DNA of 64,000 nt, from the NCBI GenBank assembly GCA_035568455.1, contig DATMOB010000022.1:4733-68732 (forward strand), given 5' to 3'. Positions 7,063-58,280 of this stretch are shown here, piece after piece. Both the position numbers and the translations under genes were made by a program. The notes below the pieces were generated by a model. The model saw only the letters and a list, made by a program, of their open reading frames with translations, was not told the origin of the DNA and made no database searches. This DNA is from Granulicella sp. Its GTDB lineage: Bacteria > Acidobacteriota > Terriglobia > Terriglobales > Acidobacteriaceae. Every line of letters starts with the position of its first letter. Within the stretch, counting starts at the first letter, position 1.

Positions 7063-7171
7063 GTCGGTTGGCTCCCTTAGCCTACATCGGTATGAGATGC
7101 AGGCTCGAGTTAGTGGCTGGCTTGACCGGCTAGCTTGACCGGCGAGGACGGCCGCCGCTAGTCTCAGCTTC

Positions 7172-7621: not shown

Positions 7622-7664
7622 CTATGACCAGCTTGCGGCACAATTGTCTGTCGACGATTGGGCC

Positions 7665-8162: not shown

Positions 8163-8238
8163 GGGTTTCTCGTAATTCTTCGTTTGACGGCAGAAACAAG
8201 ACATCGGCGAGAACAGCAGAACAGCAACGACCACAAAG

Positions 8239-8907: not shown

Positions 8908-11900
8908 GATACCTCTTTCCTCTCGATGCGGGGCGGCCGGCGTTCGGTGGGGGTGCGTTCGGTGCCGTTCCTGGTTGTCTGACCGGAGGCGCGCGCCCCG
9001 CGGAGATCACAGGTGAGGCTGATGGTGGTTCCCTGGCCGGGTTCGCTGCGGATGTGGAGCTGGGCTCCGATGTCGGCGGCGCGCTCTTCCATGCCTTTCA
9101 GGCCGAAGTGGCCGGTGGCGACCAGGCCGCCGGGCGCTGGGGTGAAGCCGGTGCCATCATCGTCGATCTGCAGGCGGAGGCGTTCGGTGTCGTAGCTGAG
9201 GGTGACCACGATCTGCCGGGCGCCGGAGTGGCGAATGGAGTTGGTGACCGCCTCCTGGGCGATGCGCAGGAACTCGTTCTCGATGCGGGGTGCGAGGCTG
9301 CGGAAGGCGCCGCGCACGTCGAGCCGGATGGCCGGGCCGTCGGCGTGGCGGCGGGTCTCGATGGCGCTGGCGATGCGCAGCGGGAGGGTGTCGGGCTCGG
9401 TGCCGTTGGCGGAGAGCGGAGAGCGCAGGTTCCAGATGGAGCTGCGCGCCTCGGTGAGCGAGGAGCGGACCAGCTGCTGGGTGATCTCGAGCTGACTGGC
9501 GGCGGCTTCGGGAGAGGTCTTGAGCAGGCGGGAGGTGACCTCGAGCTGCACTGAGACGCCGACGTAGCCCTGGGCGAGGGTGTCGTGAATCTCGCGGGCG
9601 ATGCGGCTGCGCTCGTGCAGCACGGCCTGGTACTGCGCCGCGAGGAAGCGCAGGCGGGAGCGGTAGACCAGATAGCCGAGGCCGAGAAGGGCGACGGCGA
9701 TGAGGAGAAGAAACCAGCTCGTCTGATAGAGGTGGGGTTCGAGGGTGAGCGGAAGCGCAGCGGGGGCGAGGCTCCACACGCCGTCGTTGTTCGCCGCGGA
9801 GACCAGAAAGCGGTAGCTGCCGGGCGGGAGGTTGGTGTAGTAGGCGGTGCGGCGGGTGCCGGCGTCGATCCAGTCGTGGTCGAAGCCCTCGAGCTTATAG
9901 CGGAAGTGGACCTTCTGCGGGGCAGCGAAGCTGAGGCCGGCGTAGTGGAGGGTGAGGCGCTCGGTGCCGGGGGGGAGGGTGAGGCTGCCGCCGGGATGAT
10001 CGTCGCCGCTGGAATGGCCGGTGGCGTCGTCGTCGTTTGTGTCGCCGTTGCCGGCAATCTTCTGGCTAATGCTGTCGATTCTGTCGCCGCTGGAATCGAT
10101 CTTCTCGCTGTTGTTTTCGACCTTCTCGCCATTGCCGTCGATCAGGACCTGTTCGATGGCGGTGAGCGGGGGCACGGGATTGTCGAATCCGGAGCCGGGT
10201 TTGACCTTGGCGACGCCTTTGAGGGTGCTGAACCAGAGGCTGCCATCCTGCGAGCGCCAGGCGGCGGGATGACCGCCGCTGCTGCACTCGGAGATCCTCA
10301 TGCCGTCGGCGATGCCGAAGACGGCGGTGGGAAGCGACGCGGTCTGTTGGTCGGCGAGGGCGTTGAGTGCGGCGATGCCGACCCGGTAGATGCCGCGGCT
10401 GGAGCCGAGCCAGAGGTTCGGAGAGGGTGCGCTGGACCCCTGGCTGGAGTCTTCAAGGATGCTGAAGATCTCCTGCGGAAGATTGCCCTCGGTCGGGTGA
10501 ATGGCGGTGAAGACGCCGTTGCGCAGGCGGGTGAGGCCGGCGGCGTGAGCGGCGATCCAGAGCGTGCCCTGGGAGTCTTCGTGGAGCGTGGTGATGGCGT
10601 CGCCAGCGAGGCCGCCGGGCGCCTGCGGGCTGTGAGTGTAGTTGTGGAAGCCGCGGCCGTCGAAGCTGCTGAGGCCGCCGAGCGTGCCGACCCAGAGCGT
10701 TCCGGAGCGGCTGCGGAGAATGGCGCCGATGACGTCGGAACCTAGGCCGTCCAGCCGGGAGTAGGTGGTAAAGGCTCCTCCGGAGTAGTGGGCGAGGCCG
10801 TTGCGGGTGCCGACCCAGAGCGAGCCGTCGCGATCGGTGTAGAGGGAGCGAACGAAGTCGTCGGGCAGGCCGTCGGCGCTGGTGAGCAGGGTGAGGTTGC
10901 CGTCGTGCAGGCGGCTGAGGCCGTCGGGGGTGCCGATCCAGAGATCGGGATGGCCGGTGGCGGCGGCGGTCTCCGCCAGGGCGAGGACGACGTGGCCGGC
11001 GAGGCTCGGGAGCGAGGAGACACTGCCGTCGCGCAGCCTGTTCAGGCCGCGGTTGGTGCCGATCCAGAGCGTGCCGGCGTGGTCCTGGAAGACGGCGCGG
11101 ACGAAGTCTCCAGAGAGTCCATCGGTGGAGGTGAGGGTGGAGAAGGCCTGTTCGCGCAGGACGGTGAGGCCGCCGGTGTCGGTGCCGAACCACATGTCAC
11201 CCTCGCGGTCTTCGACGACGGAGAGGACGCCGGGAAGGGGGATGGGGGATTGCAGGATCTCTCGGGCGCTGGCTGCGGCCGCGGCGGTGGTGCTCGCGGA
11301 GGTGAGCCGGGCGAGGCCGAGCTCATAGGCGATCCAGAGCGCGCCGGAGCGGTCCTGAAAAAGCTGCAGGACGCGGCCGGAGGTGATGGCGTGGCTGCTG
11401 GGCTGGGCGGCTGCGGGGACAGCTCGCAGCGTCCCGTTGCTGTACTGGGCGAGGCCGGCTGCGGTGCCGATCCAAAGCGTGCCGTTGGGCTCAAGCGCGA
11501 GCGCGGTGATGTTGGCCGAGGGAGTGGGGTGCAGGATCAGGAGCTTGCGGTTGTAGCTGAGCAGGGCGAGGCCGTCGTGGCCGCCGACCCAGAGCTCGCC
11601 CTGGGCGGTGGCGGCGATGGTTTGGAGGGAGCCGATGCCGGCGGGAATCTTCGTGTCGGAGAAGGCGGGGGTGAGGGCGGTGGCGCTGGCGGCGAGGGAG
11701 AGGATCTGGCGGCCGTTGGCGATCCAGAGGGCGCCGTTGGGGCCCTCGGTGACCAGAGCAGGGGAGAGCTCGGCGGTGAGCCCGGGGAGCGGCTGCAGGC
11801 GGCCGGAGAGCAGCAGTGCGGCGCCGCCGGAGGTGAGTACGAGCAGGCCGCCGCCGCGTCTGCGCAGCGTCTGGACGTTGTTCGAGGGCAGGCCGTCGGC

Positions 11901-43659: not shown

Positions 43660-44634
43660 ATGATGGAGATGATGGAGAAGATGCAGAATACGACAGCGCC
43701 GGCCAACCCCGACCAAGCCGCTCCCCGCTCGCTCGCGACGCTGCGCCCGTCGGTGCCCTCAGGCCTCGGCAGCCAGCTCCTCGAGCTCGCCCGCTACCTG
43801 GGTCGGACCGAGGTCCACACCTACGCCTTCAGCGTCGCCGCCAACGTCATTCTTTCGCTCTTTCCCTTCATCGTGCTTCTGCTCACCATCACCCGCCAAG
43901 TCTTCCACTCTCGTTCCATGGAAGCGGTCGTCGGCGACATGATGCACAGCTTCCTGCCGGTCGGCCAGGACTTCATCATGCGCAACATGCAGCTGCTGGC
44001 GCATCCCCACAAAGGCACCCAGCTCTTCCTCCCCATGATTATGCTGCTGATCACCTCGACCGGGGTCTTTCTTCCCCTCGAGGTGGCCCTCAATCACGTT
44101 TGGGGAGTGAAAAAAAACCGCTCCTACCTGCACAACCAACTGATCTCCCTCGGTCTGGCCTTCGCTGCCGGCGCGCTCGCCATGTTCTCCGTCGCCTGCA
44201 GTACCGGCCAGAAGTCCTTGGTCACCGGGATCTTCCTGGGCCACGTCGACAACTTCGCCTTCAAGTTCCTGGCCTTCTCCTTTCTTAAGACCGTCGGCGG
44301 CATCACCAGCGTCCTGCTCTTCTTTCTCATCTACTGGATCCTGCCCAACCGCTCTGTGCCTGCGCGCGCCGTTATGCCCACCGCCATCATGGCCGGCATC
44401 CTCTGGGAGATCGCCAAGCATCTCTACATCCTCGCGCTCCCCTGGCTTGACTTCCAGTCCGTCTACGGCCCGTTCTACATCTCTGTCGGCTTGATGATGT
44501 GGGCCTTTCTCTCCGGTCTGTTGCTGCTGGCGGGCGCGCACTTCTCCGCCACCCGCTACACCCTCAAACTCGCCAGGCAGGCCGAGGCGGAGTCCGCCCA
44601 GGCCGCGGCTTCATCCATGCCGCAGAAAGCCTGA
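43660..44634 (+). CDS. YihY/virulence factor BrkB family membrane protein
   Basis: SVAANVILSLFPF, IYWILPN, WEIAK, YGPFYISVGLMMWAFLSG...LAGA; start uncertain (43642-43681). Confidence 0.85.
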   Translation: MMEMMEKMQNTTAPANPDQAAPRSLATLRPSVPSGLGSQLLELARYLGRTEVHTYAFSVAANVILSLFPFIVLLLTITRQVFHSRSMEAVVGDMMHSFLPVGQDFIMRNMQLLAHPHKGTQLFLPMIMLLITSTGVFLPLEVALNHVWGVKKNRSYLHNQLISLGLAFAAGALAMFSVACSTGQKSLVTGIFLGHVDNFAFKFLAFSFLKTVGGITSVLLFFLIYWILPNRSVPARAVMPTAIMAGILWEIAKHLYILALPWLDFQSVYGPFYISVGLMMWAFLSGLLLLAGAHFSATRYTLKLARQAEAESAQAAASSMPQKA

Positions 44635-44651
44635 GAGAGGCGAAGATTTCC

Positions 44652-46949
44652 ATGCCCAACCTCCTGCAGATGGCGTCGGAAAGGCTCGAACGATGGCTGC
44701 GAACCCCCCTGCCCCGGGGCATGACCGGCGCCGTCATCTGGCTCGTCCTCTGCTTCTTCCTCTTCTGGGCGCTGCGCTTGGTCTCCGGCGGTTGGGGAAG
44801 TCTCTTTCTCGTCCTGCAGATCTTCACCGCCCTCGCACTCGTCGCCATCGTGACACCGCTCCTGCTGCGCTTCGTCCACTCCCGGCTGCTGTGGAGCCTC
44901 AGCAGCCGTCTCGTCCTCACCTATCTGCTCTTCGGACTAGCGCCCATCGTGCTGTTCGCCACGCTGGTCTTCTTCGCCGCCTACCTGGCCGCGGGACAGT
45001 TCGCCATCCACCTCGCCGATTCCCGCATCCAGGCCGAGCTCGCCCAGATGAGCACCGCCAACAACCACCGCATCACGCAGTTGATCATGGCCATGCAGCA
45101 GCAGCGAGCGGAGGCCGAAGAGCGCTCCTCGTCGGAGCGGCGCGGAAAACTGGCTCCTCCCGTTGCCCGCGCTCTGCTCGCCGAGACCGACAGCCCCATC
45201 GCCGACGCCCTCGCTCCCGTTCTGGTCGACTCACCGCACAACCATCTCCGCCTGCACACGTCGCTCTTCCTTGACGGTGCCCCGCTGCTCGTCAATCCAT
45301 CCGACCAGGCGACCAGCTCCGCCCAAGCCCGAACCCAATCCCGATCTCAGCCCGAATCCGACGCCCCGCTCGGCCTGCCCCCCTGGGCCGTCGACCTTCC
45401 CGGAGGCCGGTTCAGCGGCCTCGTCCTCGACGACGGAGCACTCTTCCTGGTCGCCGTCGATCAGCACAGCGTCGACATGAGCCCCAATCACAGCGGCCGT
45501 AGATTGGTCGGCCGCCACCGCCTCACTCTGGAGGAATGCGTTCTCGTCGACGAGCCGCTGATGTCCATCATCGCCTCCGACCTGGGCCGCGCCACCCTCA
45601 CGCCTATCCTCACCTCGACCAAGCCTGCCGCGCATCCCCGCACCCATCTGATCTCCAGCGGCGTCCTCCCCCCGCCCGCCAATCTGATCGACATCCCGGA
45701 GCGCTTTCCCTCCGCTCTCAGCATCGTCGATTGGGACAACGGCCAGCACGCTGACATACCCATCGAGGTGCTCACGCGCCCCTCGCTCATCTCGCGCCAG
45801 CTCTTCGGCGGCTCGGTGGGAGGCATCTACACCAGCGTTTACCTGATCCTTCTCGCCGCCCTCGTGCTGATCTTCGCCCTGATTGAGGTCTTCGCGCTCT
45901 ACCTGGCCCTGCGCGTCAGCCACTCCATCACCTCCTCGGTCACCGATCTCTACGCCGCCACCCAACGCATCGACCGCGGCGACCTCAGCCCCCGCATCCG
46001 TGTCCATGGCGCCGACCAGCTCTCCGAACTCGCGCGCTCCTTCAACGACATGACCGGCTCGCTCCAGCGCCTGCTCCAGGAACAGAAGGAGAAGGAGCGC
46101 CTCCAGAACGAGCTCAGCATCGCCCAGGAGGTCCAGGCCAACCTCTTCCCCCGCGGCGACTGCGACCTCGTCTCCCTCCAGCTGCACGGCGTCTGCCGCC
46201 CCGCCCGCTCCGTCAGCGGCGACTACTACGACTTTCTCGTCTTCCACAAGGAGGCCGCCGACGGCCGTCCCTTCCGCACCAAGACCGGCGTCGGCATCGC
46301 CCTCGGCGACATCAGCGGCAAAGGCATCTCCGCCGCTCTGCTCATGGCCACCCTGCACTCCGCCGTCCGCGCCTACCGCTTCGCCAGCGAAGAGCTCGTC
46401 TACTCCGAATCGTCGCTTGCCGGCCTCACCGCCCGCCGCGAGAACACCATCGTGAGCACCTCCGAGGAGTGCGGCGAACTCTTCCAATCCCCCGGCCGCA
46501 TCCTCTCCCTGCTCAACCGCCACCTCTACCGCTCCACCCAGCCGGAGAAGTACGCCACCCTCTTCCTCGCCCACTACGACGTCCAGTCCTCCTGGCTCAC
46601 CTACGCGAACGCCGGCCAGCTCCCGCCGCTCGTGCTCGGCCGCGACGGCAGCATTCGCCGCCTCGACAAGGGCGGCACCGTCGTCGGCCTCATGGACGGC
46701 ATGCGCTACGAGGAAGATGGCTTCCGCATGCACCCCGGCGACATTCTGGTCGCCTACTCCGACGGGGTCACCGAGCCCGAGAACGACTTCGGCGACTTCG
46801 GCGAAGCCCGCCTCATCGAGGTCGTCCAGCGCTACCGCGACGAGCCCCTCCACGTCATCTCCACCCAGGTCATGCTCGCCCTCGACGCCTGGATCGGCGC
46901 CGAAGAGCAGCCCGACGACATCACCCTGGTCCTGGCCCGCCAAATCTAG
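44652..46949 (+). CDS. Membrane HAMP plus SpoIIE/PP2C phosphatase (RsbU-like)
   Basis: TM helices, HAMP (DQLSELARSFNDM), ELSIAQEVQ, SGDYYDF, GDISGKG, YSDGVTE and DDITLV. Confidence 0.92.
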   Translation: MPNLLQMASERLERWLRTPLPRGMTGAVIWLVLCFFLFWALRLVSGGWGSLFLVLQIFTALALVAIVTPLLLRFVHSRLLWSLSSRLVLTYLLFGLAPIVLFATLVFFAAYLAAGQFAIHLADSRIQAELAQMSTANNHRITQLIMAMQQQRAEAEERSSSERRGKLAPPVARALLAETDSPIADALAPVLVDSPHNHLRLHTSLFLDGAPLLVNPSDQATSSAQARTQSRSQPESDAPLGLPPWAVDLPGGRFSGLVLDDGALFLVAVDQHSVDMSPNHSGRRLVGRHRLTLEECVLVDEPLMSIIASDLGRATLTPILTSTKPAAHPRTHLISSGVLPPPANLIDIPERFPSALSIVDWDNGQHADIPIEVLTRPSLISRQLFGGSVGGIYTSVYLILLAALVLIFALIEVFALYLALRVSHSITSSVTDLYAATQRIDRGDLSPRIRVHGADQLSELARSFNDMTGSLQRLLQEQKEKERLQNELSIAQEVQANLFPRGDCDLVSLQLHGVCRPARSVSGDYYDFLVFHKEAADGRPFRTKTGVGIALGDISGKGISAALLMATLHSAVRAYRFASEELVYSESSLAGLTARRENTIVSTSEECGELFQSPGRILSLLNRHLYRSTQPEKYATLFLAHYDVQSSWLTYANAGQLPPLVLGRDGSIRRLDKGGTVVGLMDGMRYEEDGFRMHPGDILVAYSDGVTEPENDFGDFGEARLIEVVQRYRDEPLHVISTQVMLALDAWIGAEEQPDDITLVLARQI

Positions 46950-47063
46950 CCCGCATCACCGCAGCGACCAGGCTGTAGTTGCCTTTTTGGTTGTCATCCC
47001 CGAAGCGTGATAACGATTTCCTATCACAATGATTTAATTGGATATACGTCTATGATTTTGAAT

Positions 47064-47081
47064 TGTGCAGGAACTGTGCAG
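47064..47081. repeat. Putative integrase arm-type sites (left)
   Basis: TGTGCAG at 47064 and 47075, 11 bp apart. Confidence 0.6.
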
Positions 47082-47419
47082 GCAAACCGTGTAAATTTCA
47101 GCCAACCCTAAACCGCTATAGGGTCTCCTCCGTGGCTGGCAATCACTCGGGACTCAGCCATCAGTTAAGGCCGCGCCTGCGCCACGCGGTCGGAAGTGAA
47201 AGCGAAGAGCCCTCCAAGAGAAGGCCATCTGGAATTTTAAGGGTGTTGCGGTTGCCGATAAATAACTGAAAAAAGGCGTGTTGCTTCAAGTCGCTGTGAA
47301 AGTGTGTAAGCGAGTGTGCAAGTTGGCGCTGCAGGGGGCCGTAGCTGCCGCGTGCCTGCGGTGCGCCTTTCCCCCTCTGATTCGCTAACCCTGACGATCG
47401 GCGTAATGACGCGATAATC

Positions 47420-47701
47420 AGCGCGGGCGCTTCTCAGCACGGCGGAAAGCATCACCACCCCATGTTCCGTAAATGCAAGTGGTTGAAATGTCACACGTCT
47501 TTTCGATGTGGTCGCAATTTGCGACCACATCCTGTTTGCCTCCTCTGCTGAGAGCTGGAACATGAATCTGGCCGGAAACCTGTTCAGGTTTCGTTTCACG
47601 GCTTCATTGAGGCGCTTTGTCGGCACGCCATACAACTGTGCCAAATCCATATCGAGCATGACCTTCTGGCCGCGAATGACATGGATTAAAGGCTCCACCA
47701 C
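47420..47701 (-). pseudogene. ORF6N-domain protein, 3'-truncated
   Basis: IRGQKVMLDMDLAQLYGVPTKRLNEAVKRN...FPARFMFQL...AFTEHGVVMLSAVLRS; similarity is lost afterwards (the ORF runs on to 47237). Confidence 0.8.
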
Positions 47702-48053
47702 GGGGTGAACCGCTGCGAGAAAGTTTACCGGAATGTCTTTTTGCTTTTGTCATCCTGATCGCTGTAACGGTTTGTGGTCAGGCGGTCAAGACAGCCCCCG
47801 ACTGCGGCTCAAAGGGCAAGCTGCGCGCCCGCGATCTGGGATGCCGTGCTTGCCGCGTAAGAGCCAGAAGACCCGCTTCACCTCCCATCATCTGGCCATT
47901 CTGGCTATTTGCACCACAGCCTCCTCGGCTTCCCGAAAGGCCACTGTACCCGATCGGCCTTGGCTATTTGCATCAGAGCCGGAGTTACGAGCACCACGCA
48001 GCAAAAAGGCCCCAGCGCTGCAATGTCGTGGCCTTTCCTATTGCGGAAAAACT

Positions 48054-49649
48054 CTAGACCGCCAGCATGCCCGTCCGATTCCCCAGCCTGGCCAGCTTCA
48101 CCTTCTCGCTGATCATCCCCACCGCGCGCCGCGCGCTCAATGCCGCGCCCTCCTGCCAGCCCACGATATTGCTGATCGTATCTCCCGCCAGGTAGATCGG
48201 CCCATCCGGCTCGATCACCACGTCATAGCCGCTGGTCCCGCCGCCATAGGTCTCGATCCACGAACCTTCATTCCACTTCACGTGCTTCCAGCCGCAGAAC
48301 GCCGGCTTGGTCAGCTCCTTGCCGTGTCCCGGGTGGATCTTCTCGACCCCCGCCCGCGACGCGGCCAGCTTCTGCTCCAGGGTCATCTCCGCGAACCCCG
48401 GCAGCTCGGTCTCATCCATCATGTAGCCCCCGACCACGATTCCCGTCGGGTGCATCAGCCGCGCGCTCGGATACCAGATCGGACTTGGCGCCTGCGACAC
48501 AAACGACAGCCCCCCGTAGATGTTGTAGTCCTGCTCCCAGAACCGCCGGCTCTCCCATGCGATCTTGAACGACGTCCCCATCGTGCAGCCCTCGATCACC
48601 CGCTTGTACGGCTCCGAGAGATCATTCGGAATCTTTTTCAGCATCGAGAACGGCAGTGCGCACACGCAGTAGGCCGCCTCGATCTGCTTCTTCTCCCCGC
48701 CCTGTTCATACCCGATCCGCACGCCATTGGCGGTCTTGCGGATCTCCGTCACCGGCGCGCCGTACTGCACCACCTGACCCAGCGCCTTCGCAAACGCATA
48801 CGGGATGCGGTCCATCCCACCCACCGGCTGCATCATCGTCGCCTGCCACTCCAGCACCTCCTCATACAGCATCGCGTCCCAGAAGTTCGCATCGAGCAGC
48901 GTGTGCATGTCCAGCGGAACCTCATCCACCTCTACCTGCCGGCCCGCGCCCGGCGACACCTTCATCCCCGCCCGCCCCGAGCCAACATACGCGCCCGACT
49001 TGTCCAGCGGCCCATACACCTTCAGAAACTCCGTCATCCGCTCGCGGTCTTCCCTGGACAGCTCCCGGTCCAGCGCCCCCTGCGCGATGCACTTCGACAG
49101 CAGCTCGGAGACCCTTCCCCGCGTATCGTTGATCGCCTTGCGCTGCACCACCGGCTCGCCGCCGTTGGCCTTATCGTTCTGCAGCAACGTCGAGCGCGAG
49201 GTGTTGATCTCCACCTCCAGCGCCACGCCCAGCTCGCGGCAGTAGTTGAGCATCGTCGTGTGCGTGCTCGGCAGCCGCGCCGGACCGAGATTCTGGTAGT
49301 TCCCTTCCTCCCACTCAATCGCCTGAGAAGTTCCATCCACAAACTCGATCTTCGTTCCCTTGCGTCCGGTCCAGTTGCGTCCGCCCGGCCGCTCCCGCGC
49401 CTCCAGCAGCGTCACCTCGTACCCCAGCTTGCGCAGCTCATACGCCGAGACCAGTCCCCCGATCCCGCCGCCCAGCACCACCACCTTCACGCCCGAGCCC
49501 ACGCCCGCAGCCGCCGCGATCGGCTCCATCGCCATCGCCCGCATCGGCATCAGACCCAACGACTGCATGGTCGCGAAGGTCGCGCCAAACCCACCCACCT
49601 GGCCAACGCGCAGCAGAAAATCACGCCTGGAGACTCCCAACTTACCCAT
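48054..49649 (-). CDS. Tat-exported flavin monoamine oxidase/L-amino-acid-oxidase-like protein
   Basis: SRRDFL Tat motif, GGGIGGL dinucleotide fold, LEARERPGGR, QPVGGMD and YLAGD...WQEGA. Start placed at ATG 49649. Confidence 0.9.
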   Translation of the reverse strand: MGKLGVSRRDFLLRVGQVGGFGATFATMQSLGLMPMRAMAMEPIAAAAGVGSGVKVVVLGGGIGGLVSAYELRKLGYEVTLLEARERPGGRNWTGRKGTKIEFVDGTSQAIEWEEGNYQNLGPARLPSTHTTMLNYCRELGVALEVEINTSRSTLLQNDKANGGEPVVQRKAINDTRGRVSELLSKCIAQGALDRELSREDRERMTEFLKVYGPLDKSGAYVGSGRAGMKVSPGAGRQVEVDEVPLDMHTLLDANFWDAMLYEEVLEWQATMMQPVGGMDRIPYAFAKALGQVVQYGAPVTEIRKTANGVRIGYEQGGEKKQIEAAYCVCALPFSMLKKIPNDLSEPYKRVIEGCTMGTSFKIAWESRRFWEQDYNIYGGLSFVSQAPSPIWYPSARLMHPTGIVVGGYMMDETELPGFAEMTLEQKLAASRAGVEKIHPGHGKELTKPAFCGWKHVKWNEGSWIETYGGGTSGYDVVIEPDGPIYLAGDTISNIVGWQEGAALSARRAVGMISEKVKLARLGNRTGMLAV

Positions 49650-50206
49650 TTGTTCAACCCTCATTTGTTCCGCGAGCGCAGCCAGCCAGCCGCGGCGAGT
49701 GCGCGATATCCGCCCACCCATCCCCACGCAACAGGGGGCCGCCGCAACCAGCCTCACTCGGTTCTTCCATCACCTAAGGAGTGCACCACAGGCGCAGCCA
49801 TCTCGCCTCGGCAAGCAAGCCAACCGAGCACGCAGACAGCAACCTGCAATGCAGGAACAGCCAGAGAGGCACAAGAGCCCCGTCGTGGGGACGTCCAACC
49901 CGATACGACCTCGCGCCGGGCTCGAAGTTGTTGATATGAATCGGACCCAAGCCACAACGCGTAAGCTGGAACTCGGTAGCTCCATCTTCAAAGCGGCTTC
50001 TGCTTTTGTCAATCCAGACTGTTATCAACCGGTGCGCAAGCATCCTCAATCCGTGTAGCCCCGAAGGGGCGGAAAGAGACACCGCCAGGATCGGGGCTCC
50101 GTGCTCCTTGAAATAGCACGGAAGCGACACGCTAGCTGTCGTTATTCCTAAACTAGTAGAAGAGATTCGCCGAAAGCAAAGGGCTTGCTCGTTCCCTAAA
50201 CTGCGC

Positions 50207-50244
50207 AGCCGCACGGGAGAGCCTGGTGATTGGGCAGGCATGAG
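50207..50244. repeat. 38-bp direct repeat, copy 1
   Basis: AGCCGCACGGGAGAGCCTGGTGATTGGGCAGGCATGAG; 37/38 identical to 53371-53408. Confidence 0.9.
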
Positions 50245-50573
50245 CCCTATTGATAGGCTGTATCCAACGTTTCCAGCCCACAGTGCGCTCTAGCCCAAGA
50301 TGAGTTTTTTGAGCGGAATGGCGTGACGGGCTGTGTGCATGGGTTTGCAAACAGGAATAGAACCTCTCATGAATAGAAGGTCACGATACCTCTCAGGTAT
50401 GCCAACTATCCGGTCGCGTTATGTCTCTCTCGCAAAGGGCGACCGTACACCCTATTATCAAGATAAAATTATCGGGTCTTCGTCTCATCCCATTGGCGGC
50501 TTTGAAGTGACTACAAGCGGTTGCTTCCTGCGACCACCTAGACTCCATACTGAAAACGAGTGCCCGAGAGTAT

Positions 50574-53192
50574 ATGCGTCAGATCCTATTCTGCCTTCTC
50601 CTGCTGGTTGTCCCTGCGTCCTCTTTTGCTCAATCTGAGTCGCGTCAGGTATTGCCGTCGACCATGGTTCCGCTCCACTATGATCTGGCGATCGCGCCTG
50701 ATGCCCAGAACCTGACATTTAAGGGCACGGTGAAGATCACGGTGAACGCAACGACCTCCACACGAGAGGTTGTGCTGAACGCGAAAGGGCTCACTCTCGA
50801 TCGCGTCCTGCTGGATGGCGCGGTGGCCCAGTCCGTCTCGATGGACGAGACGCTTGGCCATGCCACGTTGCAGTTTGTAAATCCGGTGAGTATCGGAGAA
50901 CATGAGCTGGCAATCAGCTACCACGGCCCAATTCTTCAGGGAACCTTCGGATTCTTTGCCATGGATTACGACAGTCCGACCGGGAAGCAAAGGACGCTAG
51001 CGACCAACTTCGAGCCAGCCGGCGCACGCATGTTGCTTCCTTGCTGGGATGAGCCGGCGCGCAAAGCGACCTTTACCATCACTGTGGATGCGCCCAAGGA
51101 CAGAGTCGCCGTGTCGAACATGCCTATAGCGCGGGTGACTGCGCTGGACGATCGATATCAGCGGGTTCAGTTCGCGACAAGTCCGAAGATGTCCACGTAT
51201 TTGCTTTTTCTCAGTATCGGGGACTACGAGCGCGTGCATCGTACGGTGGACGGGACGGACGTCGGCATTTTAGTGAAGCGTGGGGACCTTCCCAAAGCTG
51301 CCTACGCTCTGGAGCAGGCCACTGCGCTCCTGCATTACTACAACACGTACTTCGGCATCGAGTATCCTCTGCCGAAACTCGATTTGATCGCAGCCCCTGG
51401 CGGGATCACCGGGGGATCGATGGAGAACTGGGGAGCGATCTTCTACTCACAGAATCATCTACTGTTCGACCCGCAGAAATCGACTGAGGCGGACCGCCAG
51501 TGGGTCTTTCTGGTCGTTAGCCACGAAATGGCGCACCAGTGGTTTGGGGATCTCGTCACCATGGCGTGGTGGGACAATCTTTGGCTCAACGAGGGCTTCG
51601 CTCGCTGGATGCAAACTCATGCTGCGGATGCGCTGCATCCCCAGTGGCGCACCGGGCTTCAGGCGGCAGCGATCTTCGAGGGCGGCAAGCGCGCCGATGC
51701 GCAGTCCTCGAGCCATCCAGTGCTGCAACCCATCAATAGCGCCGAGCAAGCAGCTCAGGCCTTTGACGAGATCACGTACGACAAGGGAGCCGCTGTCATC
51801 ACCATGCTGGAGGCATACATAGGCCCCGATGCCTTCCGCGAGGGAGTGGATCGCTACATGCATGCCCACGCTTATGGCAACACCGTGGACAGCGACCTAT
51901 GGGGCGAGATGCAGGCCGTGGCGGGCAAGCCGATCCTCGATATCGAAAGTGACTTCACGCGACAGACGGGGCTCCCGCTCATTCAGGTGACAAGCAAGGG
52001 AAAGAGCACCGAGCTCCAAGTCAGCCGTTTCTATGAGGATCCCACGTCTGCCCCACCGCTGACGCAATCCTGGCGCATGCCAGTCGCCGTTGCCGACTCC
52101 GCGCGGCCTGTGCAGACGCTGCTGCTGACGCGCAACGCTGTGATTGCAGATGCAGAGCCCCTGGTCAATGTCGGTGCCCTCAGTTATGCGCGGGTGTCGT
52201 ACGCTCCGGCTCAGGTTCGATTGCTCCAGTCCCGCATGGCCGCGCTGTCTGCCGCTGACCAGCTCAATCTCTTGAACGATGCCTGGGCGCTCGGCCAGTC
52301 CGGCTATACTTCGGCTGGCGACCTGCTCGGCTACATAAACCATCTTCCGTCGAGTGCCGACCCCATCGTTTGGGCCCGCGCCATCGACCTACTCGTGACC
52401 ATCGATCGGGCACATCGTCCCACACCAGAGCGCACCGCGTTTCGCCGTTTCGCCTTGACCCTGCTGGAGCCGATCGCTCTCCGGATCGGCAGTTCCGGGG
52501 TTAGCGACGAAGATCCGGCGGTGACTTCTCTGCGCAATCAGATCTGGCAAACGCAGGCCCGGTTCGGCGATCCTCGCGCGCTTGCAAGGGCGAGAGAACT
52601 TTACGCCTCGCATAGCGGTTCGCCTGACGAACGCAGAACGTCCTTGGCGATCATCGCACAGACCGCGGACGCCGCCACCTTCGAGGCGCTGCTATCGCAG
52701 GCGCGAGCCTCCACCGACCCCTTGGAGCGAAGCCATCTTCTCCGCGCTCTCGCCAGTGCTGTGGACCCCGCGTTATCCGCGCGTTTGGTCGGTGTGGCGC
52801 TCAGTGGAGATGCTCCATCCGGGACCGCGCCTTCGCTCCTTTGGTTTGCCGCCGCGGAGAATCCAGACGCTGTTTGGGCTGCTCTTTCTCCCCACTTTGA
52901 CGATGCAAATCTGCCCATCGACGAGCAGGCGCGCGCCTGGATCATTCCTGCTATCGCAGGACAATCCTGCCAGCACGATCGGGTGGCCGACCTTCAGCGC
53001 TATGCGGACCACCATTTACCGGCCGATGCAAGGCAGCCAGTGGAGGCCGCGGTAGCTTCCATCCAACTGAACCTGCGCGTTCGAGAGGCTGCCGTCCCGC
53101 AGATCGATAATTGGGTCGCACAACAGTCGCGCACTCAATCTGCGTCTGTTTCGCGGCCCAGCCGGATCGCTAGCCGTTCAGTGATACATTGA
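50574..53192 (+). CDS. Secreted M1-family aminopeptidase with ERAP1-like C-terminus
   Basis: Signal peptide; PCWDEP, GSMENW, HEMAHQWFG...WLNEG and YDKG. Confidence 0.95.
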   Translation: MRQILFCLLLLVVPASSFAQSESRQVLPSTMVPLHYDLAIAPDAQNLTFKGTVKITVNATTSTREVVLNAKGLTLDRVLLDGAVAQSVSMDETLGHATLQFVNPVSIGEHELAISYHGPILQGTFGFFAMDYDSPTGKQRTLATNFEPAGARMLLPCWDEPARKATFTITVDAPKDRVAVSNMPIARVTALDDRYQRVQFATSPKMSTYLLFLSIGDYERVHRTVDGTDVGILVKRGDLPKAAYALEQATALLHYYNTYFGIEYPLPKLDLIAAPGGITGGSMENWGAIFYSQNHLLFDPQKSTEADRQWVFLVVSHEMAHQWFGDLVTMAWWDNLWLNEGFARWMQTHAADALHPQWRTGLQAAAIFEGGKRADAQSSSHPVLQPINSAEQAAQAFDEITYDKGAAVITMLEAYIGPDAFREGVDRYMHAHAYGNTVDSDLWGEMQAVAGKPILDIESDFTRQTGLPLIQVTSKGKSTELQVSRFYEDPTSAPPLTQSWRMPVAVADSARPVQTLLLTRNAVIADAEPLVNVGALSYARVSYAPAQVRLLQSRMAALSAADQLNLLNDAWALGQSGYTSAGDLLGYINHLPSSADPIVWARAIDLLVTIDRAHRPTPERTAFRRFALTLLEPIALRIGSSGVSDEDPAVTSLRNQIWQTQARFGDPRALARARELYASHSGSPDERRTSLAIIAQTADAATFEALLSQARASTDPLERSHLLRALASAVDPALSARLVGVALSGDAPSGTAPSLLWFAAAENPDAVWAALSPHFDDANLPIDEQARAWIIPAIAGQSCQHDRVADLQRYADHHLPADARQPVEAAVASIQLNLRVREAAVPQIDNWVAQQSRTQSASVSRPSRIASRSVIH

Positions 53193-53370
53193 GGCGCGTC
53201 TCCTTCGTGATCAGTTCTGTCTTTTCCGGAACTACAGTTGTTCACGTTAACGTGGGCGTGGCTTCGCCGGTGACTCGGGCTAAGCCACGCCCCGAAAAGG
53301 TTCTGAGCGGCGGCTGTCGGCATCCGGACATTATCCCGCACAAGCAGGTGACGGTGATCGAGGTTGGCAA

Positions 53371-53408
53371 AGCCGCACGGGAGAGCCTGGTGATTCGGCA
53401 GGCATGAG
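53371..53408. repeat. 38-bp direct repeat, copy 2
   Basis: AGCCGCACGGGAGAGCCTGGTGATTCGGCAGGCATGAG. Confidence 0.9.
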
Positions 53409-53417
53409 GCCCGGCCA

Positions 53418-53498
53418 CTACAGCCCGAGGGTATCGTTGACCGCGACGGCGATCTCCTGCTCCGATCCCAGGTAGCGTTCGGTGGTCTCGATCGAGCT
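53418..53498 (-). pseudogene. C-terminal tail of a tyrosine recombinase
   Basis: Reads SSIETTERYLGSEQEIAVAVNDTLGL-stop, containing the S-I-x-T-T-x-R-Y catalytic-Tyr motif; everything upstream is missing. Below the ORF-track size cutoff. Confidence 0.7.
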
Positions 53499-53832
53499 GA
53501 TAGATACTGGACGAGACATGAGCATAGCGGATGAGAACGCAAACCTAGTTTTGGCCGACATAGAACGGGCAGAACGTGAAATCCTCGCCCTCTACAAAGG
53601 GCATGTATCCACGCCTGGTCCGGTAGGTTGGCGGGAGAAAGACGGGTGTGGGTCGGAATCAAGAGACTGCGTCAAGATCGCCTTTGTTGCGGCGAAAGGC
53701 GCGCAGGAGGCGTTACAGCCGGCAATCGTAGGCGCCAACGGTGAACGGCGGGACGACGTGCCGGCATTGCAGGGAATATTTGAGGCAAAAATTGTTTGCG
53801 GGCGCATAGCATCAGGGAAGAGGATTTAACTG

Positions 53833-53858
53833 ATGTGCGGACGCTACGGCCGGCGCGG
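53833..53858 (+). pseudogene. First codons of an SRAP (SOS response-associated peptidase) gene
   Basis: ATG TGC GGA CGC TAC GGC CGG CGC = MCGRYGRR, the MCGRY start motif, cut by the IS5 relic. Confidence 0.45.
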
Positions 53859-54017
53859 CGTCGCCGACCCCGCCGGGGACCCGTTTCGATCATGAACGGC
53901 GCGAAGAACGCCCATTCCTCATCCGACATCAGACCCCGAACCAAGGCCGCTCTCCCCAAAGAGCAGCCTTGAATCATTCCTTAGCCGATTTGGGAATCCA
54001 CTTCGTCAACAGAGCCT
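53859..54017 (-). mobile_element. IS5-family left-end relic
   Basis: LMSDEEWAFFAPFMIETGPRRGR transposase start, preceded by a probable terminus CTAG-GCTCTGTTGACG on the - strand. Confidence 0.65.
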
Positions 54018-54025
54018 AGGCGCCG

Positions 54026-55207
54026 TCACAGCTCGGGGTGGACCAGGGCCGCCCGGATGCGCCGGGTGAGTTCTTCCCCGCTGAGGGGCGACCCGTCGAG
54101 GATGTTCCATCCGTTGGCGACGATGACGATGTCCTCGTCCCGAAGCACGAGGGGCCGTTGCCCGCCGAAGCCCGCGCCGCCGAAAGCGAGCCGCGAATCG
54201 CCGTCGCCATATGGAAAGAACCACCAGAGGTAAGCGTAATACCGGCCCGGAAACTCCTTGTCCTCGACCTTGATCGCGGGCGTCAGGGAGGCCTTGACCC
54301 ACTCGGGGCTGACGATCTGCGTCCCGTTCCAGGCCCCGTTGTGCAGATAGAGCAGCATCAGCTTCGCCAGATCGTGTCGGTCGAGGTAAAGGCCGCCTTC
54401 ACCGTCTGGCACGCCTTGGGGCGTCCGCTTCCAGAACCAGGACGTGATGCCCAGCGGCGCAAAAAGATGTTCCGCCGCATACTCCTCGAGGTCCTGGCCC
54501 GTCGCCTTTCGGAAGATGTAGGCTAGCGCCTGCGGCGCGCCGTCGTTGTAATTGAAGTGCGTCCCCGGCTCCTCGGCCATCGGTTGGTCGATGAAGTATT
54601 TCTGCCAGTCGAACGACTCCTCCAACTGCGTCGCGCTGTTACTGGCGTCGCTGTAGGGAACGTCGCTGTTCCACGTCACGCCCGTGGTCATATTGAGGAG
54701 ATGACGGATCGTAAGGTGCCGCTTACGGTCGTCGACGTTGGCGACGGTCCCGGCGTCGAAGAACTTCAGAACCGGCGTGTCGATGGAGGGAAACTCGCCC
54801 CGCGTGAGGGCGATCCCGATGATGATCGAGTCCACGGTCTTGGTGACCGATTGCAGCGTGTGCAGCTGGCCCTGATTGCGATAGTAGGGATACCACCAAG
54901 GATTGAAATAATTCGACGCCCCTCCGGGGTCGAGCCCGTTCAGCGCTTGGGCCTTTCGCGCCTCTGCGCCGTAGATCGCCCTGTAATCCTGCTGATAGAC
55001 GTGGTCGAAGGTTGTCTTTCCATGACGAAGGATGAGAAGACTGTCGACGTGGCCGTACTTTCCGGCGGAGATGTCCGCGTCCAGACGCGCGAGAGCCGCC
55101 GCGTCGAAGCCGAGCGAGGCCGGGGCGGAGGCGGCAGACGCCACAGGAGACAGCGAGACGCAGCCTGCAAGGCAGAGAGCAAGGATGTCGGGGCGCATGT
55201 AGAGCAA
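54026..55207 (-). CDS. Secreted serine hydrolase (beta-lactamase class C/NylB-like)
   Basis: SVTK SxxK motif, LTIRHLLNMTTG, FNYND, YAYLWW and GFGGQ; signal peptide. Confidence 0.9.
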   Translation of the reverse strand: MLYMRPDILALCLAGCVSLSPVASAASAPASLGFDAAALARLDADISAGKYGHVDSLLILRHGKTTFDHVYQQDYRAIYGAEARKAQALNGLDPGGASNYFNPWWYPYYRNQGQLHTLQSVTKTVDSIIIGIALTRGEFPSIDTPVLKFFDAGTVANVDDRKRHLTIRHLLNMTTGVTWNSDVPYSDASNSATQLEESFDWQKYFIDQPMAEEPGTHFNYNDGAPQALAYIFRKATGQDLEEYAAEHLFAPLGITSWFWKRTPQGVPDGEGGLYLDRHDLAKLMLLYLHNGAWNGTQIVSPEWVKASLTPAIKVEDKEFPGRYYAYLWWFFPYGDGDSRLAFGGAGFGGQRPLVLRDEDIVIVANGWNILDGSPLSGEELTRRIRAALVHPEL

Positions 55208-55245
55208 GGATAGCAGAGAGACGACGGGCAGGGTACAGGAAAGGA

Positions 55246-55273
55246 ACAGGGGACAGGGGACAGGGGACAGGGG
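55246..55273. repeat. Heptamer tandem repeat (ACAGGGG)x4
   Basis: Four perfect copies, followed at 55299-55322 by partly complementary CCCTACT/CCCTGAT/CCCTATT heptamers. Confidence 0.85.
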
Positions 55274-55341
55274 ACTAGGAAAGATGTTGGCGACGGATCC
55301 CTACTCCCTGATCCCTATTCCCGAAGGTTCTCGCCGATAAG

Positions 55342-55908
55342 TTGGCAAAGATGCCAAATAGCGAGGAAAACTATTACAAAGTCCGTGAGACTCGGCCCAC
55401 CTCGGAAGTAGGGCGAGCAGCACGTTTTGTTTACCTGACAAGTCTCTCTTTCAATGGAATTTATAGACAGAATTTGAAAGGCGTCTTCAATGTTCCTTAT
55501 GGGTATAAGGCGACAAAGCAACTCCCTACTTACGACGAGTTGTTAGCTGCCAGTGTCGCGCTCAAGGGAGCAACGCTCATGAGTACGGATTTTGAGGAAG
55601 CCACGGCTTCGGCCGAATCGGGCGATACGGTTTATTTCGATCCGCCCTACACCGTAGCGCATAACAACAACGGCTTCGTAAAGTACAACGCCTCAATTTT
55701 TTAGTGGGAAGATCAGCGCCGCCTGGCCGCTCATGCGTCGCGGCTAGCAGCCCGTGGCTGTCATGTCTTTGTAAGCAATGCGGACCATTATTCACTACGA
55801 GACTTGTACTGCTCTTTCCGGACCAAGGTTGTTCACCGGAATTCCGTGGTCGCGGCAAATACTGCCAATCGAGGCAAAATTACAGAGTGTCTGTTCATTT
55901 CGCGATGA
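55342..55908 (+). pseudogene. Dam-family DNA adenine methyltransferase, 5'-truncated with an in-frame TAG
   Basis: AARFVYL...FNGIYRQNLKGVFNVPYG, VYFDPPY; TAG at 55702-55704; same-frame continuation WEDQRRLA...VSNAD...RGKITECLF to TGA 55908. Confidence 0.85.
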
Positions 55909-55977
55909 GCTGTGACGGCTGTAGATGCCTCCACTTCTCAAGCGCGTGAAACGCAGAGAAGGTCATTGATTGTGCCG

Positions 55978-56677
55978 CTAAATTTCGGCAGCCGGCCAGT
56001 CCGTTAAAAGCAGCTGGCGGCTTAGCTGTGTTAGTTCCGGGTCTGGATGTGGGTCCATTTCAAACCGGATGGTGGAATCACTGATAAAAGGAACCACCCG
56101 TTCTTCGGAAGGTTTGACTTCAATCGGCTTCAACACTCTGATGCCCAGGGTTTGCTGAACCTTGGTGCGGCGCTCGGCTTCCTTATCCGCAAAGGCTTGC
56201 GTCATCTCGCCGCTGACTTCCCGAACGCCGTTGCGCCTGTTGCGGCCCGCTCCGTTCTCCCGCCGCCATGCCGGATAGCCACCCCAAAGCTCGTCACCGA
56301 TAAGGTGAACCTGAGTTGAACCGACATATCTGTCTAAAGCGCCTTCGATAATGGCGCGAACTTTCTTGGGCCGCGCGGCGCTGATTTCTCCACGTTTCGC
56401 TCGCGCCTCCTGGGTCAGGAGATATTCTCTCCCTACCTCTCGGAAAGGATGGTTGAACACAGGAACGTCATGCTTTAAACGAAACCGGATGTCTGCGTCC
56501 TGGTCGAAGGCGCGTTCCCGCGCCACATCGATGTCGGTCGTCTTAAGAGAAATAGTTCTTGTAGCGGTCGGCCTTGGGTATCTTCACACGGCAATACCAC
56601 ATCCGATGATCCACGTCGCCACGCCGGAAGAGAACCAAGCCCGGCTTGAGTTCCGATTTGTCCGTGACGAATGCCAT
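55978..56677 (-). pseudogene. Tyrosine integrase, frameshifted and 3'-truncated
   Basis: MAFVTDKSELKPGLVLFRRGDVDHRMWYCRVKIPKADRYK; removing one A near 56558 restores TISLKTTDIDVARERAFDQDADIRFRLKH. No catalytic domain follows. Confidence 0.75.
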
Positions 56678-56705
56678 ATTCGCCTCTATATCGTTTGACG
56701 CGTCC

Positions 56706-56762
56706 TGTGCAGATTCCGTGCAGATTTTTCTAGCAAGCCATTTAGTCTGCGCATCTGTGCAG
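56706..56762. repeat. Putative integrase arm-type sites (right)
   Basis: TGTGCAG at 56706, CGTGCAG at 56717 (11 bp apart) and TGTGCAG at 56756. Confidence 0.6.
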
Positions 56763-56824
56763 GGCTCGTATAGGGAATAGCCAAACAATATGTTGTTTAT
56801 TTATATTTATTTACGATATATTTC

Positions 56825-56916
56825 TCATCCCCGAAGGGATCTGCTTCTGCTGTTGTCGGTTTTCGCCAAGACCCGGGTGCCCCATCCTTCGCAGCCTCAC
56901 CGCGAAGGGTGGGATC
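56825..56916. repeat. Right half of the interrupted REP/BIME-like element
   Basis: TCATCCCCGAAGGGATCTGCTT followed by hairpin CCCATCCTTCGC...GCGAAGGGTGGG. Confidence 0.6.
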
Positions 56917-56923
56917 GAAACCC

Positions 56924-58177
56924 TTACTTCGCCGGAATCGCCTTCACCACAATCGCATTCGGCTTCGCCCCGGCCGGCAGGATCGTCAACAGCGCCGGCC
57001 CCGTCTTGGCCTGAGTCCGGATGACGCTCACGTCGCCCGAGTGCGCATCCGCCGCCAGCAGCAGATGCTCGTCTGCCGAGAACGCCAGCGCGTCGGGCCC
57101 GGATCCCGAAACCAGGCTGGCCACCACCTTGCCATCGTCGATGCTGTACAGGCTCAGAGAGTTCGCCCCAAAGTTCGACACCCACAGCGTGGAGTTGTCC
57201 CCGCTCACGACCCCGTGCACCGGCCCCTTGCCGATCGTGTACGTCCCACCCACCTCATTGGTCCAGGTCGAGATCTCCGAGACGCTGTCCGATCCGAAGT
57301 TGGAGCAGAAGATCTCGCCTCCATCCGGCTTCAGCGCCAGATGCATCGGCGTCTTCCCCACATCAAGCAGCGCCAGCAGATGATCGGTCATCAGCGAGGG
57401 GTTCTGCTTGGCCGCCCAGGAATCCGGCGCCGCCGCCAGGTTGATCGCCATCACCTGGTGTCCTCCCGAGCACGCCACAAACGCCTTCGACGAATCCGGC
57501 AGAATCACCGCATCGGTCGCGCCCGGACACCCCGGAAACGCCGCCCGCAGATGCAAGGGGGACGGAGCCGCGCCGCGCCTCGTCCTGCGATCAGCCTGGC
57601 TCGCCTCCGTCTCCGCATCGACCCCGAACACCGACACGCTGCCGCTGCCATAATTCGTTACCACCAGAGACCGCCCGTCCGGCGCGATCTTCGCCTCCCC
57701 AGGCTGCTCGCCCGTCCCGGCCACCGCAATCTCGCGGCGGTTCGCGAGATCGATCACGCTCACCGAGTTCGATCCCGAGTTCGCCACATACGCGCGCCGC
57801 CCCGCCGCATCCACACTGATCGCATACGGCTGCTTGTGCACGCCCACGGTGGCCACCACGGCGTTGCGATTGGCGTCGATCACCGACACCGTCCCGCTGC
57901 CCGTATTCACCACATAAACCTCGTCGCGCACCGGATTGACGGCCATCCCCGACGGCTGCAAGCCCACCGGCAGCGTGCGATCCGGGCGCAGATACACCAG
58001 GTCCAGCACGCTCACCGTGTTCGCTCCGCCGTTGCTCACATAGGCAAACTCGCGATAGCCCGCCGGAGCATCCGGAAAGCCGCTTTGGCGGCAACCCGCC
58101 GCTCCCACCAGCAAGACCAGCATCAGGGCAACGGCCGCGCGGCCGACAGGAAATCGAGGTTCAAACAGGGAGGTCAC
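56924..58177 (-). CDS. YncE/YVTN beta-propeller lipoprotein
   Basis: Lipobox GAAGC; repeated AYVSN/VYVVN/AYVAN...VSV(I)D blades; start uncertain (58177 or 58237). Confidence 0.85.
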   Translation of the reverse strand: MTSLFEPRFPVGRAAVALMLVLLVGAAGCRQSGFPDAPAGYREFAYVSNGGANTVSVLDLVYLRPDRTLPVGLQPSGMAVNPVRDEVYVVNTGSGTVSVIDANRNAVVATVGVHKQPYAISVDAAGRRAYVANSGSNSVSVIDLANRREIAVAGTGEQPGEAKIAPDGRSLVVTNYGSGSVSVFGVDAETEASQADRRTRRGAAPSPLHLRAAFPGCPGATDAVILPDSSKAFVACSGGHQVMAINLAAAPDSWAAKQNPSLMTDHLLALLDVGKTPMHLALKPDGGEIFCSNFGSDSVSEISTWTNEVGGTYTIGKGPVHGVVSGDNSTLWVSNFGANSLSLYSIDDGKVVASLVSGSGPDALAFSADEHLLLAADAHSGDVSVIRTQAKTGPALLTILPAGAKPNAIVVKAIPAK

Positions 58178-58280
58178 CTCAGCGAGTCTAGCGGCGGCTG
58201 CCGCCACCCGCAAGTCCATGGAATTTCTGTGCCACAATCAGGGCAGAATTCGCGAAACTTTTTTCTAGACCTGACGTTTA

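Follow-up and report, generated by a model that had tools for sequence, protein, structure and literature searches.

The island and its boundaries

The DNA analysed here (the window) is a stretch of 64,000 nucleotides from a Granulicella sp. genome. It contains two convergent host genes, for a HAMP-SpoIIE/PP2C phosphatase and a lactonase-like protein, which are syntenic in many genomes of the same genus and are separated here by a 9.8 kb island (positions 46994–56836). The island is bounded by an exact 12-mer direct repeat, TCATCCCCGAAG, with exactly two copies in the window, one at each island end, and five in the whole genome assembly (3.99 Mb, 163 contigs). Its GC content is 0.53–0.65, against 0.65–0.68 for the flanks. 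A tyrosine-integrase pseudogene lies at the right end, and pairs of GTGCAG sites at 11 bp spacing lie near both ends (47064/47075 and 56706/56717); one more site, the third at the right end, is at 56756. The pattern GTGCAG-N5-GTGCAG matches twice in the window, both times at the island ends; shuffled sequence gives an expectation of 0.04 matches, and none of 100 shuffles reached two. Coordinates of the features are collected in Table 1.

A preliminary description of this DNA had reported the direct repeat, the paired sites and, between the convergent genes, a unit resembling a repetitive extragenic palindromic (REP) sequence that was rebuilt by joining the flanks and related to repeats at window positions 1–95. 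It had proposed a family of integrase elements that targets abundant REPs and so has many landing sites. All of this was borne out by the analysis presented below. We conclude that the island is very probably the decayed remnant of a mobilizable element, which a tyrosine integrase once inserted into a REP and not into a tRNA gene. The same end of the repeat serves more than a hundred intact relatives, in soil Acidobacteria and Alphaproteobacteria, as a landing site present in many copies.

The rebuilt target site belongs to a dispersed REP family

The joined flanks read CCTTTTTGGTTGTCATCCCCGAAG followed by GGATCTGCTTCTG, and their reverse complement (minus strand), CAGAAGCAGATCCCTTCGGGGATGACAACCAAAAAGG, is a short-loop member of a dispersed family with the consensus GCAGATTCCTCCGCTGCGCTGCGGAATGACAACCAAAAAG. 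About 45 units of this family (GGRATGACAA-type) are present in this fragmented assembly, with copies similar to the rebuilt site on contigs C14, C107 and C145. At window positions 1–95, a full REP unit whose start lies upstream of the window is followed by several tandem REP 3' boxes (GGAATGACAA…), and these copies belong to the same family.

The arms of the units covary, with ATTCC…GGAAT in 32 units and ATCCC…GGGAT in 11. The sister box CGCTCAGGATGAC has 44 exact copies in this genome, compared with none for a reversed-pattern control, and most of these copies sit in a 58-nt nested-hairpin unit with compensatory changes at seven of ten inner pairs (94.5% of cells paired, compared with 86% in shuffles). 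In individual 58-nt units (for example C17:419 and C83:1144), the inner hairpin varies by compensatory changes (CCTCTCGCG/CGCGAGAGG versus CCTCGCACG/CGTGCGAGG, among others), while the outer boxes are invariant. Since the predicted REP hairpins are thermodynamically unremarkable (-4 to -12 kcal/mol, z-scores -0.5 to -1.5), we rest the description of the repeat as a palindrome on this covariation. Across 12 host genomes, the core 13-mer is present in 3–104 copies per genome, against 0–1 for the reversed control, and by eye the REP copies lie in intergenic DNA. No inverted REP pairs within 300 bp were found among the 44 cores of this genome; many such pairs, 60–190 bp apart, are present in genome G061.

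The integrase pseudogene and its intact homologues

The preliminary description had placed a tyrosine integrase at the right end of the island. An integrase-like gene does start at 56677 on the minus strand, but it is not intact. It reads MAFVTDKSELKPGLVLFRRGDVDHRMWYCRVKIPKADRYK, is then interrupted by a 1-nt frameshift near codon 41 (about 56545–56555), and continues to …VVPFISDSTIRFEM, with homology stopping at residue 207 of about 475 (near 56056). The whole catalytic domain is missing, so this copy is dead, and its fragments gave no Pfam match, that to PF00589 included.

Intact homologues were gathered, as had been proposed, by searching 301 genomes of the same family (Acidobacteriaceae). 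Nine were found (84–95% identical over residues 1–207, about ten genera), together with three further truncated copies. The intact integrases are 473–475 residues long (one reads 551) and carry PF00589 (E-value 9.1e-13 for the protein from genome G300), and the motifs ACNTGMRPAE, CFRHTYATLRL and HYGH are invariant in the eight that were aligned. No NCBIfam family claims the integrase, which gives weak Xer-like scores only.

Ends and gene content of the element family

Both ends of the window island align with the ends of intact elements. With the distal arm-type pair used as a pattern to locate distal ends, both ends could be mapped for 24 elements of 4.4–63 kb, the window island among them. 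The pattern CTRCAC-N5-CTGCACA gave 16 matches in 11 genomes, all at element ends, while the reversed control gave none. Every element examined has CTGCAC-N5-CTGCAC pairs at its two ends only, and they form conserved columns in the alignments of 79 proximal and 22 distal arms. The direct repeats of the mapped elements are 9–16 bp long and all contain GGATGA or GGAATGA, almost always as (C)CGCTCAGGATGAC(AA). A DNA search with the left 715 nt of the island gave nothing useful in 10 genomes holding intact relatives.

In the orientation of the integrase, the shared layout begins with the 5' bulk of the host REP, followed by the core, an AT-rich stretch with three CTGCAC sites and the integrase gene. 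The rest of the element follows, then a CTGCAC pair, about 75 bp of further sequence, a TCAC box, the core and host DNA. The window island shows the same order. In its integrase-distal arm (P arm), the invariant TCAC box adjoins the core (GTGA at 47007–47010 on the plus strand), the arm-type pair lies at 47064–47070 and 47075–47081, and CTGCACAGTTCCTGCACA is identical to its counterpart in an element of genome G124. In the integrase-proximal arm (P' arm), three arm-type sites (56706–56712, 56717–56723 and 56756–56762) are followed by an AT-rich stretch that reaches the core.

The backbone gene content was read from one annotated element, the intact copy in G300 (Acidobacteriaceae bacterium dw_441, of the window's genus). 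This element encodes the integrase, ArdC, a NikA-like protein, a TrwB-type coupling protein and a TrwC relaxase, and as cargo GmrSD, DUF6119, extra recombinases and, by eye, a putative type I restriction system. No mating-pore (type IV secretion system) genes were found among its 27 open reading frames (ORFs). Because a relaxase and coupling module is present without mating-pore genes, we assign the family to the integrative mobilizable elements (IMEs). The family is large, is recently spreading and is present in more than one phylum.

Two further observations concern the cargo. At 5153–9687 of the G300 element (locus L046) lie four consecutive ORFs on the same strand. One of them is confirmed by a PF00589 match and the rest share similar N-termini, so that the group resembles a nested module of several recombinases. 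About 18.2 kb into the element of genome G166 (Acidobacterium sp. S8; loci L054/L055), direct repeats resembling those of clustered regularly interspaced short palindromic repeats (CRISPR), GAGTCGCCCCCCGCGCGGGGGCGTGGATTGAAAC, suggest a CRISPR array as cargo.

The window copy itself encodes no relaxase or coupling protein among the island proteins. Internally, it shares with the intact elements only the first 773 nt at the integrase end, plus weak end similarity. As only the two element ends are kept, the island is a fossil, now fixed: after insertion, the catalytic domain of the integrase disappeared, and so did all of the transfer module (ArdC, coupling protein and TrwC relaxase).

It could be argued that the island arose without an integrase, by homologous recombination between REPs or by chance, the 12-bp repeat being a coincidence. 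REPs are generally known as substrates of homologous recombination, and the local integrase is dead. This explanation is already contradicted, however, by the homology of both island ends, arm-type pairs included, to the ends of more than 20 intact elements. The integrase remnant also sits exactly where the intact integrases sit, and the placement of the direct repeat with respect to the two arms agrees with that in every relative. On this evidence a chance direct repeat was rejected, and we give the integrase-free origin almost no credence.

An uninterrupted REP at the orthologous locus

In many genomes of the genus, the two flanking genes are adjacent without an island. The closest relative in which they are so (genome G010, flanks 81–88% identical) has an uninterrupted REP, CTGGTTGTCATTCCCGAAGGGAATCTGCC, directly after the stop codon of the left gene, and a second REP copy 60 bp beyond the first. 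Absence of an uninterrupted REP between these genes in relatives had been named beforehand as grounds for rejecting insertion into a REP, and this one case suffices to set that objection aside.

The same gene pair is separated by about 90 kb in genome G004 (G004:C1 3265150–3354936) and by an unrelated 3.7-kb insert in genome G002 (G002:C2 94897–98606). Since these genomes also hold inserts there, the spacer between the two genes is a recurrent variable spot.

Target sites in Acidobacteria

To a scan with one genome per species we owe 200 integrase relatives, the best 80 of which are 87–100% identical. The hosts of these 80 are Terracidiphilus, Acidipila rosea, Terriglobus albidus, Granulicella, Edaphobacter, Silvibacterium, Alloacidobacterium, Candidatus Sulfotelmatobacter and other Acidobacteriaceae. 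Several genomes hold 2–5 copies at different sites, and one metagenome-assembled genome (MAG) has five.

The integrase-side junctions were scored as REP-like under a strict test, a 5' box 20–75 nt upstream of GGATGA, which 59 of 78 junctions passed. About 10 more are REP variants by eye (about 69 in total), two of them short-loop units like that of the window. No tRNA gene was found at a junction in the sequence inspected for the 78, and all 71 of the flanks that were compared represent unrelated loci. The attachment cores of the homologues thus map to REP ends at many loci with no consistent use of tRNA genes. Instead of a unique gene, the elements use as chromosomal attachment site (attB) the 3' box (…GGRATGAC) that is conserved in a dispersed REP family, and each genome consequently offers from a few to about 100 candidate landing sites.

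Reach into Alphaproteobacteria

A protein search returned 1557 relatives, including copies 69–85% identical in sequences labelled Phenylobacterium, Hyphomicrobium, Alphaproteobacteria and a 'Micavibrio' MAG. We inspected nine junctions of these 69–85% identical copies. Five (L171, L172, L177, L180 and L181) terminate in GGATCCCGGCCTGCGCCGGGATGA or something close to it, which is a different REP from the acidobacterial one; the label Alphaproteobacteria is attached to L171, L172 and L177. The REP of the alphaproteobacterial group reads …CCGGCCTGCGCCGGGATGA, and all seven junctions of alphaproteobacterial type lie in the REP of that group. One junction (L178) ends in GGATTCCCGCTTTCGCGGGAATGAC, and two carry the acidobacterial REP form (L176, from the 'Micavibrio' MAG, and L179). 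Two distal ends were recovered for these elements, with the direct repeats CGCGGGAATGAC and GCCGGGATGA.

In the remaining junction, at about 2780–3000 of L174, a distal arm pair is joined through the core to a proximal arm without a gap; ArdA lies on the upstream side and the integrase on the downstream side. Two elements in tandem would give such a joint, from which the arrangement of the element's own attachment site (attP) can be read directly. The joint is compatible with tandem integration and is no proof of excision.

The junctions also bear on whether the REP belongs to the host at all. The REP-like sequence beside the integrase might instead be carried by the element, with only a motif of about 10 bp as the true target; the bulk of the REP is, after all, always on the integrase side, and just its last bases are on the far side. 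Yet a complete REP is present at the empty orthologous site in G010, and the 5' parts of the junction REPs vary widely (in their inner hairpins and as long versus short forms), following the family of each host. Tens of copies of these REPs are found where no element is inserted, including in genomes that hold a dead integrase copy only, and the tandem joint in L174 contains only a TCAC-type P arm, the core and a P' arm. We therefore regard an element-borne REP as very improbable and take the REPs to be the host's own sites.

Variation of attP and a model of recombination

Between its TCAC and ATGAC boxes, attP has a variable stretch, which reads CCGCTCAGG in most elements, GCTTCGGGG in the window, TTGGCCGGG in the G124 element and TCCGCGGGA in the alphaproteobacterial G397 element. 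In each lineage this stretch matches the REP variant of the host, and the two boxes are invariant. Genome G124, for example, has 17 copies of GGCCGGGATGAC and 5 canonical cores; the corresponding counts in G061 are 1 and 104. The shortest direct repeats put the crossover within the last 9 bp, TCAGGATGA, and it would lie at the 3' edge of the REP (the GGATGAC box) and not at the apex of the palindrome. So wide a difference in bases could hardly be read by integrases that are 90% identical. Tyrosine recombinases require identity in the overlap region; the pattern fits this requirement and suggests that homology in the overlap sets the target.

We propose that an integrase of the lambda/P4 style recombined the attP of the element with the 3' end of one REP between the two convergent host genes, and that this insertion split the REP and left the duplicated 12-bp core. 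The N-terminal domain of the integrase would bind the CTGCAC arm-type sites, of which the distal arm has two and the proximal arm three. As core sites the enzyme would use the invariant TCAC and ATGAC boxes, and strand exchange would take place within the approximately 9 nt between them, which correspond to the 3' stem of the REP. The intact copies may excise, and they may be active at present.

Several observations weigh against insertion into REPs by such an enzyme. About 10% of the junctions (6–9 of 78) are non-REP, one of them inside an SDR gene, and these still read (C)AGGATGAC. An orthologous empty site was found in G010 only, the other genomes of the genus having unrelated short spacers without a REP. 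Searches for an empty site failed for the G300 element, whose upstream flank is itself accessory, and for two G124 elements, whose relatives are too divergent and whose flanks are full of other repeats. The N-terminal 230 residues of the integrase match no Pfam or NCBIfam family, and an AlphaFold2 model built on an eight-sequence alignment was discarded (predicted local distance difference test score, pLDDT, of 35), so that we base arm binding on the architecture of the ends. Finally, no REP-associated tyrosine transposase (RAYT) is linked to the family. A RAYT-like Y1_Tnp gene (with HxH and Y motifs) lies at C68:45644–46192, but it is flanked by a different repeat (…GGCTAAAGCTTTGGCTTACC…) and has no unit of the family within 600 bp. 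We accordingly use the term 'REP' descriptively.

The non-REP insertions also argue that recognition is by sequence or homology and not by the shape of a hairpin. An integrase that reads the folded REP, extruded or single-stranded, as integron integrases read attC, would fit targets that are palindromic, whose stems are kept by compensatory changes and whose 3' stem overlaps the core. Against this, the core that is duplicated occupies the 3' edge or tail of the unit and falls outside the inner hairpin of the long form, and the non-REP sites share the motif in DNA that is not palindromic. Arm-type sites and direct repeats of 9–16 bp are typical of lambda-style recombination on duplex DNA, the integron integrase model of NCBIfam (TIGR02249) scores 23.5 bits against a cut-off of 265, and there is no cassette array. 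The predicted hairpins are also weak, with z-scores around -1. Recognition of a folded hairpin is therefore improbable, and recognition of duplex sequence is preferred.

A broader generalisation is possible, although in our judgement it falls a little short of probable. For one lineage of tyrosine integrases, common to Acidobacteriota and Alphaproteobacteria, one REP family may serve as well as another as a landing pad. Only the invariant TCAC and ATGAC boxes would be read by the protein, and the overlap of about 9 nt would be re-set to the dominant REP variant of each host, so that the element could retarget itself through a few attP bases with no change in the protein. REPs would then largely decide where defence and cargo islands accumulate.

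Other features of the island

Between its two arms the window island carries a set of cargo genes (Table 1). Direct repeats of 41 nt, 95% identical, lie on either side of the M1 aminopeptidase gene (50207–50247 and 53371–53411). The second copy abuts the end of an insertion sequence (IS) at 53414–53494, and blastn copies of this IS end occur on contigs C36 (three), C26 and C93. The M1 aminopeptidase segment may be an IS-mediated nested insertion within the island. A short run of GGGACAG heptamers (55243–55290) separates the serine hydrolase gene from the methyltransferase fragment. Just beyond the island, at 56872–56925, is a second dispersed repeat, GGGTGCCCCATCCTTCGCAGCCTCACCGCGAAGGGTGGGATCGAAAC, with dozens of near-identical copies across the genus.

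Table 1. Features of the island and its flanks, in window coordinates.
Feature	Position	Strand	Evidence
Left flanking host gene, HAMP-SpoIIE/PP2C phosphatase	44499..46949	+	Pfam SpoIIE 2.6e-40, HAMP 7e-12
3' part of split REP unit, B' side of target; reads CTTCGGGGATGACAACCAAAAAGG on minus strand	46982..47005	-	Matches family consensus ...GGRATGACAACCAAAAAG; uninterrupted in G010 at same position
Direct repeat copy 1 (att core), integrase-distal junction	46994..47005	.	Exact 12-mer
Integrase-distal arm (P arm)	47006..47090	-	Aligns with distal ends of 21 other elements
Cargo: ORF6N-domain protein	47237..47701	-	Pfam PF10543, 8.2e-31
Cargo: flavin amine oxidase	48054..49757	-	Pfam PF01593, 1.1e-39
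Cargo: M1-family aminopeptidase	50574..53192	+	Pfam Peptidase_M1 2e-70
IS remnant: IS end recurring elsewhere in genome and weak IS4/5 DUF4096 fragment	53414..53977	-	blastn; Pfam DUF4096 E 0.002, below cut-off
Cargo: beta-lactamase-fold serine hydrolase	54026..55207	-	Pfam PF00144, 9.1e-24
Dam-type (D12) adenine methyltransferase fragment, both ends truncated	55342..55704	+	Pfam PF02086, 3.8e-18, profile positions 82-199 of 253
Tyrosine-integrase pseudogene	55978..56677	-	Residues 1-207 match intact 473-475-aa integrases, 84-95% identity
Integrase-proximal arm (P' arm)	56699..56824	-	Conserved blocks in alignment of 79 relatives
Direct repeat copy 2 (att core), integrase-proximal junction	56825..56836	.	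Exact 12-mer
5' part of split REP unit, B side of target; reads CAGAAGCAGATCC on minus strand	56837..56849	-	Matches family 5' box GCAGATYCC
Right flanking host gene, 7-bladed beta-propeller lactonase-like protein	56924..58237	-	Pfam PF10282, 5e-20

Significance and comparison with known systems

Most descriptions of site-specific integrases tie them to a single conserved gene, most often one for a tRNA. The well-defined integrase family described here acts on a dispersed repeat; it is precise to the base pair and still has dozens of sites to choose from in each genome. This would explain the coexistence of several copies in one genome, the lack of island synteny between genomes, and why such islands are missed by tRNA-based finders. 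REP-like repeats thereby gain a concrete function in soil Acidobacteria, a group with poorly known mobile elements: they are the sites at which horizontally transferred DNA attaches, and this DNA includes restriction-modification systems, GmrSD and further defence cargo. If confirmed, the co-variation of the attP core with the host REP would be a simple natural form of retargeting by overlap homology, of possible interest for integrase engineering. No description of this family, or of tyrosine integrases that target REPs, turned up in the body of papers searched, which is not proof that there is none.

The elements most resemble islands and IMEs with lambda/P4-type tyrosine integrases, with which they share a PF00589 recombinase at one end, a duplicated core, arm-type sites in both arms, variable cargo and a relaxase module. 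For comparison we took elements at tRNA or single-copy gene sites, namely Islander-type islands (PMC4383910), SGI1 at trmE (PMC2297512) and the dusA islands (PMC4482086). Those target one conserved gene, whereas the target here, a dispersed REP, is present in tens of copies in each genome; the integrase here also fits no named NCBIfam family and has weak Xer-like similarity.

A dispersed palindromic repeat is used as a multi-copy site by the Nf filamentous prophages of Neisseria, which integrate into dRS3 repeats (ATTCCC…GGGAAT, 200–700 copies per genome) at insertion loci that vary (PMC7058167, PMC2212043). The dRS3 stem resembles the ATTCCC/GGGAAT stems found here. The Nf recombinase is reportedly a Piv/IS110-type enzyme, an assignment said to go back to Kawai 2005. 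These are small filamentous phages with another type of recombinase, unlike the relaxase-bearing islands described here, with their tyrosine integrase and arm sites.

Insertion sequences of the IS3 family, IS1397 and ISKpn1, target REPs or the palindromes of bacterial interspersed mosaic elements (BIMEs). In the IS110 family, ISPpu9 and ISPpu10 target REPs (PMC8450116), and IS110 is guided by a bridge or seeker RNA (PMC11208160, PMC11187229). Specific insertion into REP or BIME palindromes, with many possible sites, is common to these and to the elements studied here. The insertion sequences, however, have DEDD or DDE transposases, are 1–2 kb long without cargo and, for IS110, use a guide RNA. 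Here, the mobility gene adjacent to the end is a tyrosine recombinase, rather than a DEDD or DDE transposase as the sole mobility gene, and the elements carry cargo.

The prophage phiRv1 of Mycobacterium tuberculosis is said to occupy REP13E12, a 1.4-kb repeat with about 7 copies, by means of a serine integrase (reportedly Bibb & Hatfull 2002). Its attB likewise lies in a repeated chromosomal element that offers several alternative sites, but the enzyme is a serine integrase and the repeat is 1.4 kb long, not a short palindrome. Elements of the Tn916, CTnDOT and NBU1 type insert into short degenerate or AT-rich targets and have coupling sequences. They share with the present family a tyrosine recombinase, many sites, and junctions that partly reflect the previous host site, and differ in that the target here is a defined identity of 9–16 bp within a specific repeat family.

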